DNA from: a virus
Length of the DNA: 5,697 nt
Virus record (IMG/VR): IMGVR_UViG_3300029330_000069
Strand: one strand, 5' to 3'
Positions 133 to 5,697 of the stretch are shown here, piece by piece. The notes under the pieces were generated by a model. That model was not told the DNA's origin. It made no database searches and saw only the letters and a program-made list of their open reading frames with translations. The translations under genes and the position numbers were made by a program. Numbering within the stretch: position 1 is the stretch's first letter; each line of letters opens with the position of its first letter.

Positions 133-516
133 GTGAAAATTTACAGAATGCACAACGACAGAAACGGAAAAGTGACAGAAAATTTTAAGGTCAGGGAATA
201 TGCCTGTAAAGATGGCAGCGACCTGGTGCTGATAGCAGATGAACTAGCAGAGCTGCTACAGGAAATCCGAAACAGACTCGGAGTGCTGTACATCAACTCA
301 GGGTTCAGAACCGAAAAATGGAATGAAAAAGTAGGCGGAAAGCCTTACAGTTACCATCTGGCAGGAATGGCAGCGGACATCTGGGTAAAAAATGTAAGTC
401 CGAAAAAAGTGGCTCAGACAGCAAGCGAAATCCTCGACACACACGGAGGAGTGATCTTATACACAAACTTTGTGCATGTCGATGTAAGAAAAGACTTTTA
501 CAGAAAGGGGGTATAA
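133..516 (+). CDS. Peptidase M15 family (Peptidase_M15_3 / zinc D-Ala-D-Ala carboxypeptidase-like) cell-wall hydrolase; putative lysin.
   Basis: 127 aa from GTG 133, preceded by SD agggggaa at 116-123. Family hallmarks: ENFKVREYACKDGS, SGFRTEKWNEKVGG, SYHLAGMAADI (His/Asp Zn ligands), FVHVDVR (second His). No signal peptide or TM. An ATG at 148 is an alternative start but has no SD. Confidence 0.75.
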   Translation: MKIYRMHNDRNGKVTENFKVREYACKDGSDLVLIADELAELLQEIRNRLGVLYINSGFRTEKWNEKVGGKPYSYHLAGMAADIWVKNVSPKKVAQTASEILDTHGGVILYTNFVHVDVRKDFYRKGV

Positions 517-758: not shown

Positions 759-1022
759 ATGATTTTTCAGGTATATGCAGTAAAAGACGAACTGGCCGGC
801 ACTTTCGGCAATCTGATGGTGGTCAACGAAAAGGTGGCAGCACGCACCTTTAAGTGGATGGCACAGGAGATGGAAAAGAGCGACACGGAAGACAAACGGG
901 TCTATCTGATGGCCCAGTACGACAACGAGAGCGGCCAGATCGTGCCGATCGGCATTCCGGAAATGGCCTATAACCTCGAAATCATGAAAAAGGAGCAGGA
1001 AAATGGCAGTAAGAATCTTTAA
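759..1022 (+). CDS. Hypothetical protein, 87 aa. Size and position fit a VP5/protein C-like non-structural protein; family not recognised.
   Basis: SD aaggagg (744-750) before ATG 759. Overlaps the next gene by 20 nt. No TM segment. Confidence 0.5.
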   Translation: MIFQVYAVKDELAGTFGNLMVVNEKVAARTFKWMAQEMEKSDTEDKRVYLMAQYDNESGQIVPIGIPEMAYNLEIMKKEQENGSKNL

Positions 1023-1497
1023 GCCATACGAAGACGAAAAACCACCGGCACTGTTCAACGATCCAGGCAGCATCATGGAACCGCAATATAAAGAACGGTA
1101 TGATGAAAGAGGCGTGGCATACCTCGAAAAAGTGGGCGAAGTCAACACCTACGAAAAAATCCAAAGTTACCGGGATGAATGTGACGTTATGAGCATCCTC
1201 AGCCGATACGCAGCGGGAGATCAGACTGTCCTTGCAACACCAGGCTGGTACATCGACACCAGCAAACTGCCGAACAGCTACACAGAATACATGAACCTCA
1301 TGAACGAGCAGCGAGAAAAATTCGAAAAACTGCCGCTCAACATCCGGGCAGCGTTCGGAATGTCCTTTGAAAAGTGGGCAGCGACCGCAGGTGATGAAAA
1401 CTGGATGAAAGCCATGGGCTTTGAAAAAAAGCAAAATGCACAAAAAGAAACCGCTGCAGCAACGGAAGAAGTTGTGCAGAAAGGAGAAAATAAATGA
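1003..1497 (+). CDS. VP3: Putative internal scaffolding protein (gokushovirus VP3-like), 164 aa.
   Basis: SD aaggag (991-996) before ATG 1003. Motifs SYRDECDVMSILSRY and KLPNSYTEYMNLMNEQREKFEKLPLNIRAAFGMSFEKW resemble conserved blocks I recall from gokushovirus VP3 scaffolds. Ends overlapping the VP1 start (ATGA). Confidence 0.55.
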   Translation: MAVRIFKPYEDEKPPALFNDPGSIMEPQYKERYDERGVAYLEKVGEVNTYEKIQSYRDECDVMSILSRYAAGDQTVLATPGWYIDTSKLPNSYTEYMNLMNEQREKFEKLPLNIRAAFGMSFEKWAATAGDENWMKAMGFEKKQNAQKETAAATEEVVQKGENK

Positions 1498-3182
1498 ACC
1501 GAAACAGTGAACAGCACTATGCACAAGTACCACGAGCAGAAATCCGGAGATCACGATTCAAACGAGATTTTAATTTGCTGACGACAATCAACGAGGGCGA
1601 TCTGGTGCCGATCTACTGTGATGAAGTGTTGCCGGGCGATACCGCAAAAATCAACATGAACGCACTCATGAGAATGAGTACACCACTCTATCCGGTCATG
1701 GATAACTGCAACTGCGACTTTTACTTCTTCTTCGTGCCGGCACGTCTGCTGTGGGACCACTTTGAAAACCTCATGGGACAGAACGATTCATCGTACTGGG
1801 CAGAACCAGTAGAATACACAACTCCGCAAGTAACAAGCCAAACAGGTTGGGAAGAAGGAACAATCGCAGATTATATGGGAATTCCAACCAACATAAAAAA
1901 CATATCAGTAAACGCTATGCCATTCAGAGCATATACAAAAATATGGAACGAATGGTTTAGAGACGAAAACTTGCAGCAGCCATCAAATCTAGACACAAGT
2001 GACAAAACACACACATATAGCCAAAACATAGAAGAAGACAAAAAAGAAATCAAAAGAGCGCAAATCGGAGGAAAACCGCTCAAAGTATGCAAATACAAAG
2101 ACTACTTCACAAGCTGCCTGCCGAGCCCTCAGAAAGGCGAAGCAGTGAAACTGCCACTGACAGGTAACGCACCAATCAGAACATACACTGATAAAGAAAT
2201 GACAAAACAAGCGGCCGCAATCGGAAACCCGGAAATATACTACTCGCCATGGACATGGGGAGGCACAGAAGCAAACCTCGAACAGACCTACGACTTAGAC
2301 GATATCCCAAAATTCCAAAGCAAACTAGTTGGAAAAGCAAAAGACAAATATAACTTCGTAGAACAAGGAAATATTAACCCCACCAAAACAGTATACTTAG
2401 GCGCAGATCTGAGCGCAACCACAAGCACAACGATCAACGAACTCCGACAGGCTATCGCAGTACAGCATATTCTGGAAAGAGATGCCAGAACGGGAAGCAG
2501 GTACAAAGAAATCTTACAGGGGGCCTGGGGGGTCACCTCGCCGGATGCACGACTTGACCGGAGCGAATACATCGGCGGATACAGACTGCCAATCAACATC
2601 AATCAGGTGGTACAGACCAGCTCGACCGACACCACAAGCCCGCAGGGCAACACTGGCGCATACAGCATGACAACCATGTCAAAAAAAATGTGCACCTACT
2701 CAGCTACAGAGCATGGCTACATCATCGGGCTCGCAGCAGTACGAGTAGAACACAGCTATCAGCAGGGCCTTGCACGGATGTGGACACGTAGCACCAGATT
2801 CAGCTACTATGACCCGATGCTTGCAAACCTCGGTGAACAAGCAGTGCTCAATCAAGAAATCTATGCACAAGGCAACGATCAGGATGAAGAAGTATTCGGC
2901 TATCAGGAAGCCTGGGCCGATTACAGGTACCGCACAAACATGGTAACCAGCGAAATGCGCAGCACCTACAAACAGACGCTGGATGCATGGCACTATGCAG
3001 ACAAATACAACGAATTACCAAAACTAAGTGCAAGCTGGATTCTGGAAGATGATAAAAACATCAACCGAACGCTGGCAGTACAGAGCTCCAACAGCCATCA
3101 GTTTATCTGCAACTTCTACTTCGACCAGACGTGGACAAGACCTCTCCCGATCTACAGCATCCCGGGCCTGGAAACGATTTAA
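1494..3182 (+). CDS. VP1: Major capsid protein VP1 (Microviridae F-protein family), 562 aa.
   Basis: N-terminus HYAQVPRAEIRRSRFKRDFNLLTTINEGDLVPIYCDEVLPGDT closely parallels chlamydiaphage/gokushovirus VP1 (..FAQVPSARIQRSSFDRS..TTFDAGYLIPIFCDEVLPGDTF). The 560-aa length is typical for Gokushovirinae. SD aaggag 1482-1487. Confidence 0.92.
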   Translation: MNRNSEQHYAQVPRAEIRRSRFKRDFNLLTTINEGDLVPIYCDEVLPGDTAKINMNALMRMSTPLYPVMDNCNCDFYFFFVPARLLWDHFENLMGQNDSSYWAEPVEYTTPQVTSQTGWEEGTIADYMGIPTNIKNISVNAMPFRAYTKIWNEWFRDENLQQPSNLDTSDKTHTYSQNIEEDKKEIKRAQIGGKPLKVCKYKDYFTSCLPSPQKGEAVKLPLTGNAPIRTYTDKEMTKQAAAIGNPEIYYSPWTWGGTEANLEQTYDLDDIPKFQSKLVGKAKDKYNFVEQGNINPTKTVYLGADLSATTSTTINELRQAIAVQHILERDARTGSRYKEILQGAWGVTSPDARLDRSEYIGGYRLPININQVVQTSSTDTTSPQGNTGAYSMTTMSKKMCTYSATEHGYIIGLAAVRVEHSYQQGLARMWTRSTRFSYYDPMLANLGEQAVLNQEIYAQGNDQDEEVFGYQEAWADYRYRTNMVTSEMRSTYKQTLDAWHYADKYNELPKLSASWILEDDKNINRTLAVQSSNSHQFICNFYFDQTWTRPLPIYSIPGLETI

Positions 3183-3194
3183 GGAGGGGACAAA

Positions 3195-4079
3195 ATGGGC
3201 TTGTTTACAACACTCATGGGCGGATTGCAAATAGCAGGAATGCTATCAAGCATCTACTCAAACCTCAAAGGCAATTCATCCAGCGCAACCGGACAGAACA
3301 CGATGAACAATACTATCACGAGTGGTACAGTCACAGGAAACAACGCTCAGACCACCACAGGAGCCGGAGGAAGTGTGCAGACAGGCAACACCTCAGCACT
3401 CGGAAACCTGCTATCCACGGCGCTAGGAACGCCTACAGGAAACAACAGTCAAACCGCAGCTGATTTCAACTTAGGCAGTGCAACAACAGCAAACGACCTG
3501 CAATCCAGTCAATGGAAACTCGGAAACATCATCAACTTAGGAGCAAGCTTAGCAACCAATGCGATGAGCGCAGCAAGCCAAAGCAGTGCAATGAGGTACA
3601 ACGCAAAGGAAGCACAGCTACAAAGAGACTGGGAGGAGCGGATGAGCTCAACAGCTTATCAAAGAGGCGTGAAAGACCTCAAAGCAGCAGGGTTAAATCC
3701 TATCCTGGCAGCTTACAACGGATACGGTGCAAGTACACCGTCCGGAGGTTACGCATCAGTGGGCGGAGGTCAAACCTACAGCCATACACAAGCAATGGCC
3801 ATTCCAGCAGCCAAAACGGCAACAATGCAGGCCATGTATGATTATGGCAACAACACAGCACAGGTACTGACGAACATGCAAGCAGCGATCAACAGCGCCA
3901 AACAGTCAAATGACTACTGGACAGCAGAACAGCTGCAAGGCATGATGAGCCAGATCACAGACACCAGCGCAAGACAGGTGGGCCAGCTGAGCAAAACAGA
4001 GCGGAACCAGTACAGCGAAGAAAAACAGAGCAAAGAAACTGAGGTATCCGGCAAAATTGAGGGCAAAATAAAACACTAA
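3195..4079 (+). CDS. VP2: Minor capsid / DNA pilot protein VP2, 294 aa.
   Basis: SD aaggagggg (3181-3189) before ATG 3195. Hydrophobic N-terminus [21 protein letters not shown], a Gly/Asn/Gln/Thr/Ala-rich low-complexity body, and the conserved gokushovirus VP2 block [27 protein letters not shown]. Confidence 0.8.
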
Positions 4080-4108
4080 TTGACAGGAAAGAACAGGAGG
4101 TGTATAAT
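4080..4108 (+). promoter_or_regulatory. Perfect consensus sigma70/sigmaA promoter: TTGACA (4080-4085), 17-nt spacer, TATAAT (4103-4108), TG immediately 5' of the -10. Predicted start near 4114-4116.
   Basis: Read directly: ttgaca ggaaagaacaggaggtg tataat. The -35 begins one base after the VP2 stop codon. Confidence 0.7.
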
Positions 4109-4148
4109 ATGAGTGTACTAATCACACACTTCATCTAGGAGGCACAAC

Positions 4149-4316
4149 ATGAGAAGTCAAGTAGTCAAACGTGTAAACATCAATCTGACACAAAAAGAGA
4201 TTAAATCACTTGAATACATCAAAACATGTAATCTTGAAAATACACGATACACCGAAAGCGATATCATCCGAGACGCAATAAACATGTATGCGGAAACAAT
4301 GGGCTTGCAGAATTAG
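4149..4316 (+). CDS. Ribbon-helix-helix (CopG/Arc/MetJ-like) DNA-binding protein, 55 aa; putative transcriptional regulator.
   Basis: SD aggagg (4137-4142) 6 nt before ATG 4149. MRSQVVKRVNINLTQKEIKSLEYIKTCNLENTRYTESDIIRDAINMYAETMGLQN. Pattern is basic N-terminal beta-strand (KRVNINLTQ), helix A (KEIKSLEYIK), turn (NTRYTESD), helix B (IIRDAINMYAETMG), as in CopG. Absent from the ORF track because it is under 60 aa. Confidence 0.6.
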   Translation: MRSQVVKRVNINLTQKEIKSLEYIKTCNLENTRYTESDIIRDAINMYAETMGLQN

Positions 4317-4323
4317 AAACGAA

Positions 4324-4375
4324 CATGGACGGGGAGACCCGTCCAGTTCTGCAACATCTGTCCATGGGTTTTTTT
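4324..4375 (+). terminator. Terminator candidate downstream of the RHH gene: alternative hairpins followed by a T7 run.
   Basis: catggac (4324-4330) pairs with gtccatg (4360-4366), then gg and ttttttt (4369-4375). An inner GC hairpin ggacggg-GAGA-cccgtcc (4327-4344) has a GNRA-type loop. Confidence 0.4.
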
Positions 4376-4396
4376 GGGCAAGAGCTAAATTTTCTG

Positions 4397-4441
4397 TCAA
4401 TGGGCCCCAATAACATCAAGAGGGTTATTGGGGCCCATTGA
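4397..4441 (+). other. Perfect 17-18 bp inverted repeat (hairpin) with a 9-nt loop, ending exactly at the Rep RBS. Candidate ssDNA origin/primosome hairpin or operator.
   Basis: t-caatgggccccaataac (4397-4414), loop atcaagagg (4415-4423), gttattggggcccattg-a (4424-4441), then aaaaggagg and ATG 4464. Confidence 0.6.
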
Positions 4442-4463
4442 AAAGGAGGTGCAACGAAACAAT

Positions 4464-5573
4464 ATGGCATGTACAAGACCGCTCGTAAGAATACCGACCA
4501 AAAGCGGAGAGTACCGCATAGTCAGCCTGAAAGGGTACATAGAGAGCACCGGCTTATACCTAAGCCAGAATGCAGACAAAAAGACTCAAGCCAGAAACGA
4601 AAAAAAAATCAAAGAGCTTCTGAAAAACCAGGATGCACAGCTTCTACCATGCGGTCACTGTCCAGCTTGCAAAATGGCAGCGGCCAGCAGCTGGGCAAAC
4701 AGAATGGAACTGGAACTACCATATCATGAAAATGCATGGTTCATTACATTGACATACGATGAAGAACATATACCACTTCGAGCAGTATGGAGCGAGGAAA
4801 CAGGCGAAATCTACACCGAGAACTACTCGCTCAGATATGAGGACATGCAAAAATTTTGGAAACGGCTCAGAGATCACATCAGATACCATGAAAAAAGCTG
4901 TGGTCAACTGATGTACTTTCAATGTGGTGAATACGGTGGAAAAACACACAGGCCACATTATCATGCGATCGTATATGATCTCCCGATAAAAAAAGAAGAA
5001 TTAAAAATTTACAAAAAGAAAAACGGCGCAGTGTATTACAATGTAGATTGGATCACAAAATTGTGGGGTTTGGGTTATGTTGTCATTGCTCCGGCAGAAT
5101 GGAAAGCAATGGCATATACAGCCAGATACACCACAAAAAAAGTATATGGAAAGGAGGGCAAAGAATTTTATAACGAACTCGGGATTCTGCCAGAGAAATG
5201 CAACATGAGCAAAAGACCAGCAATTGGAGCGAGATATTTTGAAGAACACAGCAAAGAGATCTACGAAAATGATAAGATTCAACTGAAAAATGGAAAAGTA
5301 TGCAAACCGCCACGATATTTCGACAAGCTGTATGATGCACAATGCCTAAGAAAACCACTCTCGGAATCAGAAGTGGAAGATATTGAGCTGATAACAGAAA
5401 AAGCCGAGTCCGATGAACTTAAAGCGATAAAAAGAAAGCGTCGTAAACTCGCAAATGACGCACTCTTCGCTAAGCTCAAACAGAACAACGGCTTAACTCT
5501 ACAAGAATATTATAACAAGGAAGAACAACTAATTCAAGACAAATTCAAAAAACTGATAAGGAACGAAATATAA
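4464..5573 (+). CDS. VP4: Rolling-circle replication initiator protein (Microviridae VP4 / phiX174 protein A family), 369 aa from ATG 4464.
   Basis: SD aaggagg (4443-4449) before ATG 4464. N-terminus MACTRPL (M-x-C-x-x-P typical of gokushovirus VP4), Cys cluster CGHCPACK, motif I WFITLTYD, HUH motif HYHAIVY (4956-4976), catalytic di-tyrosine motif YTARYTTKK (5115-5141; compare phiX A YVAKYVNKK). The ORF-track TTG 4428 start lies inside the hairpin and lacks an SD. Confidence 0.9.
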   Translation: MACTRPLVRIPTKSGEYRIVSLKGYIESTGLYLSQNADKKTQARNEKKIKELLKNQDAQLLPCGHCPACKMAAASSWANRMELELPYHENAWFITLTYDEEHIPLRAVWSEETGEIYTENYSLRYEDMQKFWKRLRDHIRYHEKSCGQLMYFQCGEYGGKTHRPHYHAIVYDLPIKKEELKIYKKKNGAVYYNVDWITKLWGLGYVVIAPAEWKAMAYTARYTTKKVYGKEGKEFYNELGILPEKCNMSKRPAIGARYFEEHSKEIYENDKIQLKNGKVCKPPRYFDKLYDAQCLRKPLSESEVEDIELITEKAESDELKAIKRKRRKLANDALFAKLKQNNGLTLQEYYNKEEQLIQDKFKKLIRNEI

Positions 5574-5598
5574 GGAACGGCGATTAAAGGCGCAATCC

Positions 5599-5697
5599 GG
5601 ATGCAGAACTCTGGGTTGCGCCTTGCTTTTCATACGGCACGGGGCAACCGTGCCTAGCGCAAGGCCTCAAACAAAAGCCTTGCAATTTTTTTTTTTT
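5599..5697. repeat. Second copy of the terminal overlap, redundant with 1..99.
   Basis: Exact match to 1..99 by direct reading. Confidence 0.9.

Follow-up and report, generated by a model that had tools for sequence, protein, structure and literature searches.

A conserved ribbon-helix-helix gene with its promoter and a putative operator ahead of Rep in a clade of gut gokushoviruses

Introduction

Microviruses are treated as minimal phages in which constitutive promoters and leaky terminators alone determine gene expression. Could such a phage carry a dedicated transcription regulator, and what would this protein regulate? The question is raised by the IMG/VR virus record IMGVR_UViG_3300029330_000069, a stretch of 5,697 nucleotides (nt) that was analyzed at its full length (hereafter, the window) and that constitutes a complete genome of a gokushovirus-type microvirus, i.e., a gut single-stranded DNA (ssDNA) phage, with every gene on the + strand. 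In the spacer between the genes of the VP2 pilot protein and of the replication initiator Rep (VP4), a first-pass annotation made from the letters alone had described a self-contained, moron-like cassette composed of a perfect promoter, a 55-amino acid (aa) open reading frame (ORF) with a ribbon-helix-helix (RHH) pattern, and a terminator. A dedicated regulator was deemed unexpected in Microviridae, and we likewise found no published description of one. Specifically, literature on Microviridae or gokushoviruses in combination with RHH, CopG, repressors, or regulators yielded nothing relevant, and the accessory genes named in a large survey of microvirus diversity are only methyltransferases and lysis peptidases, with no regulators among them (PMC9239249).

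We lean towards reading the 55-aa ORF as a dimeric RHH DNA-binding protein, both the dimer and the binding being predicted, the gene of which opens an early transcription unit. With comparable and moderate confidence, we regard the RHH gene and Rep as one early unit (rhh-rep) under autorepression, comparable to CopG-RepB of the plasmid pMV158 or to feedback of the Aca type.

A conserved gene at a fixed position

The gene is real and conserved. A first search retrieved 11 close clusters at 78-96% identity, and a profile search retrieved 276 homologous clusters, the 120 listed of which were all on microvirus-sized contigs (no longer than ~5.9 kb). The family is narrow, since an exhaustive hidden Markov model search of 1.84 billion representatives returned only 45 clusters at 50% identity. 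The exact protein of the window was found on 21 contigs and is named, if at all, 'hypothetical protein'; the JGI pipeline labels one sister cluster as an Arc/MetJ-type regulator. With the family profile we recovered 51 IMG/VR loci, 50 of which were microvirus genomes, and a comparison set of 55 microvirus genomes was assembled from IMG/VR and GenBank. The order VP1 - VP2 - RHH - Rep was observed in 55/55 of these genomes, always with the promoter described below between VP2 and the RHH gene, and the RHH stop was separated from the Rep start by 92-154 nt in all relatives but one (54/55). Five GenBank relatives (MG945569, MG945373, MG945797, MG945186, and KX513873) carry the gene in the VP2-VP4 spacer and a sixth record (MT135351) also matched. 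The gene is unannotated in all six and, as the first-pass annotation had warned, its length causes it to be missed by common ORF cut-offs. Ratios of non-synonymous to synonymous substitution rates (Nei-Gojobori) were 0.05-0.28 at a synonymous divergence of up to 0.6, which indicates purifying selection; the pairs formed by the window with L008, L010, and L013 were excluded from this estimate as improperly aligned equal-length pairs.

The predicted fold of the protein

The β-α-α topology of about 45 residues was present in the protein of the window. AlphaFold2, provided with 37 diverse homologues, modeled the monomer with a pLDDT of 83.5, with an extended N-terminus and two helices at the positions given in Table 1, and the model looks as an RHH monomer should. 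When the family profile was aligned by hhalign to CopG (the sequence of which had been checked against 1b01/2cpg), the strand and both helices fell in register over 39 columns (E=7.7e-4, 26% identity, probability 25%). Residues R8, N10, N12, L13, T14, S37, and D38 were invariant in 37 diverse sequences. Along the strand, residues K7-R8-V9-N10-I11-N12-L13-T14 alternate between core and DNA-facing, so that R8, N10, and N12 are the predicted DNA-facing residues, and S37-D38, located at helix 2, would suit its N-cap. Pfam RHH_1 matched 14/17 relatives (best E=1.3e-4), and the remote members P0156 (22.8 bits) and P0160 (33.1 bits) clear its gathering score. PHROGs returned a weak 'transcriptional repressor' match for the protein of the window, and NCBIfam only sub-threshold matches of RHH type (aCcr1, NikR). 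Judged from the structure model and this chain of profiles rather than from the Pfam RHH_1 model, for which the protein of the window is itself sub-threshold, the RHH pattern noticed in the first-pass annotation is a genuine RHH fold and the protein is a member of that superfamily.

A natural RHH-RHH tandem fusion, P0124, was modeled from its single sequence by AlphaFold2 as E-H-H-E-H-H at low confidence (pLDDT 54), and is taken as a hint only. A type II toxin-antitoxin role was also considered and rejected: the neighbors of the gene are VP2 and Rep, no toxin-family match was found, and PADLOC gave no match for the protein of the window, so that this reading was dropped for the absence of a partner gene.

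The promoter and a putative operator

As the first-pass annotation had stated, a perfect TTGACA-17-TATAAT promoter begins one base past the VP2 stop and precedes a gene with a strong Shine-Dalgarno (SD) sequence. In a promoter scan this was the sole 12/12 match in the window, with the runner-up at 10/12, and the number of 12/12 matches expected by chance is ~0.002 per 5.7 kb on both strands (uniform-composition estimate). The promoter scored 10-12/12 in 55/55 of the related microvirus genomes, mostly 0-6 nt past the VP2 stop, and the hexamers are kept among relatives while the sequence between them varies. The -10 and the RHH start were 38-44 nt apart in 53/55 genomes, the leader of the window being 40 nt long.

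Conserved repeats cover this promoter. GTGTA occurs as a direct repeat at 4100-4104 and 4113-4117, an inverted ACAC arm lies at 4126-4130, and the pseudo-palindrome AGTGT-N9-ACACT (4112-4130, 19 nt) crosses the expected transcription start at ~4115. Among 43 unique leader sequences, nearly all bases of the pattern GGTG-TATAxT-ATG-R-GTGTA-NN-AAyC-RY-ACAC-Y were invariant (the invariant elements being GGTG, TATA, ATG, GTGTA, AA, C, AC, and C), although the identity of VP1 across the same genomes is only 51-86%. The outer pair of the palindrome was A-T in 19 sequences and G-C or G-T in 12 each, whereas A-C did not occur. The symmetry extends to 8/9 positions in one sub-clade, where the inner pairs would leave a 1-nt loop that is impossible for an RNA hairpin. 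An RNA hairpin was therefore rejected in favor of a site in duplex DNA, because the inner pairs are incompatible with a hairpin and because a transcript that starts ~7 nt after the -10, i.e., within the left arm, omits that arm. The GTGTA/ACAC repeats are thus a putative operator, to which we infer from the sequence that the RHH protein binds; the invariant DNA-reading residues of the protein and the invariant repeats are mutually consistent.

The leader also holds a nine-codon mini-ORF (Table 1). Its SD-like GGAGGTG sits inside the promoter spacer, and in 47/50 unique leaders it is closed within the leader or by a 4-nt overlap. A conserved peptide was considered and rejected: substitutions are chiefly non-synonymous and fall mostly at first and second codon positions, so that the conservation probably reflects a DNA element. 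This mini-ORF would occur solely on transcripts that read through from VP2.

Separately, the 19-nt core GGTGTATAWTATGRGTGTA was also present in three larger phage contigs (L089, L094:7860-7900, and L098:9660-9700). In L094 and L098, it stands behind TTGACA at exactly 17 nt, with no RHH gene evident in the ~700 nt inspected downstream. These occurrences could stem from chance, from a shared strong-promoter design, or from horizontal transfer.

A probable single early unit with Rep

No promoter-like site was detected between the RHH gene and Rep by the promoter scan. Since Rep lacks a recognizable promoter of its own, the promoter at 4080-4108 most likely serves Rep too. The spacer that separates the two genes is structured and 147 nt long in the window; in many relatives only ~92-113 nt are available, mostly occupied by a long hairpin. 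Downstream, three hairpins follow the Rep stop (5587-5697, overlapping the repeat at 1-100) and are likely terminators that close an early unit extending from 4080 to ~5697. A single early unit of promoter, RHH gene, Rep, and terminators, in which both genes would be co-transcribed, is the simplest reading. A promoter for a pMV158-like antisense RNA on the minus strand near the Rep start was sought and discarded, as none scored at least 9/12.

The first-pass annotation had closed the cassette with a 'hairpin + T7 terminator' after the RHH gene. Both elements exist in the window, yet they do not make up a canonical terminator: an intrinsic terminator has a GC-rich stem with a U tract within 0-2 nt, and here 19 nt lie between the last base of the stem (4349) and the first of the T7 run (4369). 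The terminator scan called none on the + strand between the RHH gene and Rep. A long imperfect hairpin at ~4299-4365 (-31.7 kcal/mol), which borrows the last 15 coding bases of the RHH gene, ends 3 nt from the T7 run; it is not conserved in relatives. The combination of hairpin and T run is limited to one group of relatives, and most sub-clades have no T run. Other relatives have a different sequence, or pass from the RHH stop almost directly into a long hairpin of the 18-bp type, and many relatives in which a separate promoter for Rep would not fit lack the GC-rich hairpin. In the sub-clade of the window, transcription may be partly attenuated at the T7 run.

The remainder of the spacer is shared more widely. 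The element AAATTTTGTGTCA and the long hairpin (4397-4441 in the window) with the loop ATCAAGAGG are universal among relatives, the stems showing compensatory changes and the loop being kept in all of them; this hairpin has no T run on either strand. The element at 4385-4441 is a candidate for the origin of replication or for a leader element of Rep, and a search of Rfam with a permissive E-value over positions 4000-4500 returned no credible family. Upstream of it, the core (GC)AACA...TCCAT is kept across sub-clades, even in minimal spacers and whatever coding sequence precedes. The window also contains a direct repeat, TCTGTCCATGGG / TCTGTCAATGGG, the copies of which are 36 nt apart (4350-4368 and 4393-4404 region). 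The (GC)AACAT..TCCAT motif and the direct repeat may be Rep-binding or origin elements.

The 4385-4441 element was also found in gokushoviruses that lack the RHH gene (L113:2653-2702 and L114:2828-2872). Dulem virus 202 has a related Rep and no RHH gene, and in its VP2-Rep spacer of 146 nt the VP2 stop is directly followed by a GC hairpin, and then by AATTGTGTCA and a long hairpin with the loop ATCAAGTAG; no sigma-70-like promoter was found in that spacer. Bajarodmic virus 460 likewise has the TGTCA-hairpin-ATCAAGA element. Because a similar hairpin exists in the RHH-less Dulem virus 202, the GC-rich hairpin of the window predates the insertion of the RHH gene or lies outside of it. From these comparisons, the promoter, operator, and RHH gene (4080-4316) look like a clade-specific insertion before an older origin-like region.

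Proposed regulation of Rep and points against it

Under the autorepression that we favor, the incoming ssDNA would be made duplex while the RHH protein is absent, and the promoter would fire strongly. Transcription would yield the RHH protein and then, through the structured spacer, Rep, and would end at the post-Rep hairpins. Once accumulated, the RHH protein would bind the GTGTA/ACAC repeats over the -10 and the start and shut the promoter. Rep would first be produced in a burst and then be clamped. Among the functions floated in the first-pass annotation, a repressor of rep is the one retained here, with the autorepression itself as a prediction.

Several observations weigh against this proposal. 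Regarding the protein, the match of the window to Pfam RHH_1 (15.5 bits, E=0.016) is under the gathering score of 20.5, searches of PDB sequences with both the protein and the family profile gave no meaningful matches, and Foldseek searches returned nothing significant. Regarding the operator, the spacing of the half-sites (12-13 nt) slightly exceeds a helical turn, part of the invariance may stem from the strength of the promoter or from the mini-ORF and its SD, and L094 and L098 carry the 19-mer and TTGACA with no RHH gene evident in the inspected ~700 nt. Regarding the transcript, the T7 run together with the possible long imperfect hairpin could end part of the transcripts before Rep in the sub-clade of the window. 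Lastly, the RHH-less relative manages without the module, and the existence of alleles with an acidic tail (see below) suggests functions beyond repression.

Alternative explanations

Two relatives have additional cargo in the module. In MG945373.1 (L002:3769-3954) and in the Logan contig L088:63-248, the promoter/palindrome is followed by a 61-aa ORF, the stop of which overlaps the start of the RHH gene (ATGA). This ORF matches the full Pfam AcrIC5 profile (E=2e-25, 89 bits versus a cutoff of 27). The arrangement is apparently that of an acr-aca-like operon, carried by a gokushovirus of the pig gut. Experiments have validated AcrIC5, which has orthologues in gut Firmicutes and Actinobacteria, as a type I-C inhibitor (PMC7913775), and the validated RHH-type Aca14 binds an inverted repeat that overlaps the -10 (July 2026; bioRxiv 10.64898/2026.07.27.740549). 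The RHH protein might thus be an Aca-type regulator of an anti-defence slot, in which the promoter would express the cargo on entry and the RHH protein would silence it, the window representing an orphan or empty landing pad. Both readings would share autorepression as the mechanism and differ in biological purpose. We consider this unlikely. The 40-nt leader of the window is free of cargo, with no acr gene and no ORF beyond the mini-ORF, and the AcrIC5 homologue is present in only 2 closely related of ~60 genomes, while fellow members of the same RHH sub-family lack acr and the cargo-free module is under purifying selection across the clade. Moreover, further AcrIC5 homologues were found in ~17-kb phages, in a prophage-like contig, and in a ParA-bearing contig. 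As homologues occur in such unrelated elements and members of the sub-family lack it, acr appears to be a mobile part that was inserted late into an existing module. The suggestion made in the first-pass annotation, an Aca-like regulator left behind by an anti-defence locus, gains from the AcrIC5 homologue in these two relatives, but an insertion of acr into a pre-existing module is more parsimonious than the loss it supposed.

A second set of relatives differs at the C-terminus. Among the 160 retrieved family proteins, 51 end in an acidic run followed by [LIM]P[FY], e.g., EEEDLPF and EEDELPF (L003:5204-5413, L110, P0130, P0135, P0137, P0140, P0147, and P0155 are examples), and the allele of the window is tail-less. 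Going by their sequence, these acidic tails resemble the C-terminal motif of the ssDNA-binding protein SSB, a recruiter of replication and repair proteins, the Gram-positive form of which is DDLPF. The SSB motif has been given as DDDIPF (PMC5872125). As an alternative, the RHH protein could be an origin-proximal replication accessory that, near Rep and the hairpin, helps to load Rep or host replication proteins in the manner of TraY, NikA, PcfF, and MobC, and the tail, where there is one, would recruit the partner proteins of SSB. This explanation is doubtful to the same degree as the Aca-type one. The protein of the window has no tail, the most strongly conserved repeats are on the promoter and not on the hairpin, and gokushoviruses without an RHH gene have the hairpin region too, presumably in working form. 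In addition, near-identical genomes swap tailed and tail-less alleles, so that the tail is unnecessary for the core role. Specifically, L110 (IMGVR_UViG_3300045988_018676) is near-identical to the window (95% in VP2 and 95% in Rep, with the same promoter and leader), and its RHH allele (minus strand, ~416-192) is a tailed protein of 75 aa with only ~52% identity in which the strand motif is retained. The comparison of L110 with positions 4080-4316 of the window suggests an exchange of alleles by recombination between conserved flanks.

Other variants of the gene were observed as well. L056 (~3970-4560) has two tandem RHH paralogues, the second of which is of the P0155 type and ends in DDLPF, and L007 has a leader with a tandem partial duplication plus a truncated RHH gene. 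A third class of C-terminus, with a conserved TGYTFANEW, was found in L032, L034, L042, L047, L050, L052, L055, and L105.

It is possible, albeit not a reading that we would favor, that the module is an exchangeable cassette of the clade with three roles, namely the timing of the Rep burst, a landing pad for anti-defence genes, and mimicry of the SSB tail in the tailed alleles. If so, the SSB-tail mimic would bring PriA, primase, and the chi subunit to the adjacent origin, coupling the early shut-off to the start of replication, and with the AcrIC5 homologue an anti-CRISPR would have been noted in a microvirus for the first time. In either case, this homologue and the ends that are similar to SSB tails raise questions about anti-CRISPRs in ssDNA phages and about the recruitment of host replication proteins.

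The self-contained, moron-like cassette of the first-pass annotation, with its own promoter, gene, and terminator, would be insulated from Rep and directed at, e.g., late or host genes. In its favor, a comparison with Dulem virus 202 does give the promoter, leader, and RHH gene the appearance of a discrete piece inserted directly behind the VP2 stop, and a T7 run does follow structured RNA in the sub-clade of the window. We nevertheless hold this explanation to be improbable. The terminator is neither canonical nor conserved, given the 19 nt between hairpin and T run, the lack of a called terminator, and the lack of the T run in most sub-clades, and the hairpin is part of the older spacer. Rep would be left without a promoter of its own. 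No second full palindrome was noticed in the window, the other RGTGTA half-sites of which were not individually checked for an inverted partner. Lastly, the module is fixed in the clade (55/55) and not sporadic, the gene being syntenic and under purifying selection.

Least probable is the switch for lysogeny or a carrier state that the first-pass annotation had also raised: the Arc/Mnt type of small phage repressor has an RHH fold and some gokushoviruses are known to integrate, but no integrase is present, all listed homologous clusters are on contigs of microvirus size, and neither a homologue nor a copy of the 25-nt promoter/operator core (i.e., no prophage copy) was found in 185,579 species-representative genomes, which were scanned for exact patterns with one genome per species and hence with limited sensitivity.

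Genome and surrounding features

The window carries a 99-nt exact terminal repeat (1-99 = 5599-5697) that represents an assembly overlap, and the circular genome is 5598 nt long. The M15-family peptidase encoded 3' of Rep is a probable lysis enzyme and, among the loci examined, is common to the closest relatives only. A weak promoter-like TTGCAA-N15/16-TAAAAT lies ahead of its gene, after the post-Rep hairpins. The coordinates of all features are collected in Table 1.

Table 1. Features of the window discussed in the text, with positions counted from its first nucleotide
Feature	Position	Strand	Details
M15 peptidase	133-516	+	
VP5-like protein	759-1022	+	
VP3 scaffold	1003-1497	+	
VP1 capsid	1494-3182	+	
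VP2 pilot protein	3195-4079	+	stop TAA 4077-4079
Sigma-70-type consensus promoter	4080-4108	+	-35 TTGACA 4080-4085; 17-nt spacer; -10 TATAAT 4103-4108
Putative operator	4099-4130	strand-neutral	GGTGTA 4099-4104 over the -10, plus the 19-nt pseudo-palindrome
Mini-ORF, nine codons (MSVLITHFI)	4109-4138	+	ATG abuts the -10; TAG stop overlaps the SD of the RHH gene
SD AGGAGG	4137-4142	+	6 nt 5' of ATG 4149; read from sequence
RHH gene, 55 aa	4149-4316	+	β-strand ~6-13 (KRVNINLT), helices 15-27 and 36-50
GC-rich hairpin GAAC-A-TGGACGGG / GAGA / CCCGTCCA-GTTC	4321-4349	+	core 4326-4345
Conserved motif TGCAACATCTGTCCATGGG, then T7	4350-4375	+	T7 4369-4375; not a canonical terminator
CTAAATTTTCTGTCA, then perfect 18-bp hairpin	4385-4441	+	stem 4397-4414/4424-4441; loop ATCAAGAGG
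Rep/VP4, HUH rolling-circle initiator	4464-5573	+	Pfam REP_ORF2-G2P E=1.5e-15; phrog_942 E=6.5e-95
Post-Rep hairpin, then GCTTTTCATA	5587-5624	+	15 pairs; terminator scan
Post-Rep hairpin GCAAGGC/GCCTTGC, then AA + T12-13	5659-5683	+	read from sequence

Comparison with known systems

Systems in which a small RHH protein represses its own gene upstream of a rolling-circle Rep are well known; a fixed module of this kind in a microvirus clade appears to be undescribed. TraY, NikA, PcfF, and MobC, the RHH accessory proteins of HUH relaxases, differ in that the conserved repeats are here on the promoter and not on the hairpin. With the viral RHH repressors Arc and Mnt of P22 and SvtR of SIRV1, no relationship was detected at the sequence level, and their context is also different, i.e., the immunity regions of large dsDNA viruses. 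Shared with Aca operons, including that of Aca14, is a short operon that ends in the gene of an RHH regulator and has a strong promoter and an inverted repeat at the -10, and two relatives of the window have the arrangement promoter - AcrIC5 homologue - RHH. On the other hand, the window and most of the clade lack an acr gene, the downstream gene is the essential Rep, and, unlike Aca repressors, the family is restricted to one gokushovirus clade.

The closest parallel is CopG-RepB of pMV158. CopG represses Pcr, the common promoter of copG and repB (PMC2724298), and when this repression is relieved a burst of Rep results at plasmid establishment (PMC5717011). On the one hand, the window differs from this system in being a virus and not a plasmid, in having its repeats over the -10 and the start rather than the -35, in the structured spacer with an origin-like hairpin between the two genes, in the absence of a detected antisense RNA, and in the remote similarity of its protein to CopG. 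On the other hand, both systems encode a small RHH protein (~45-55 aa) immediately 5' of an HUH rolling-circle initiator on the same strand, the family profile aligns with CopG in register, and a single strong promoter bears a pseudo-palindrome, from which a burst of Rep and then a clamp would be expected in both. If the RHH protein is indeed autoregulated ahead of Rep, a whole clade of gut gokushoviruses would use plasmid-style feedback on its initiator.

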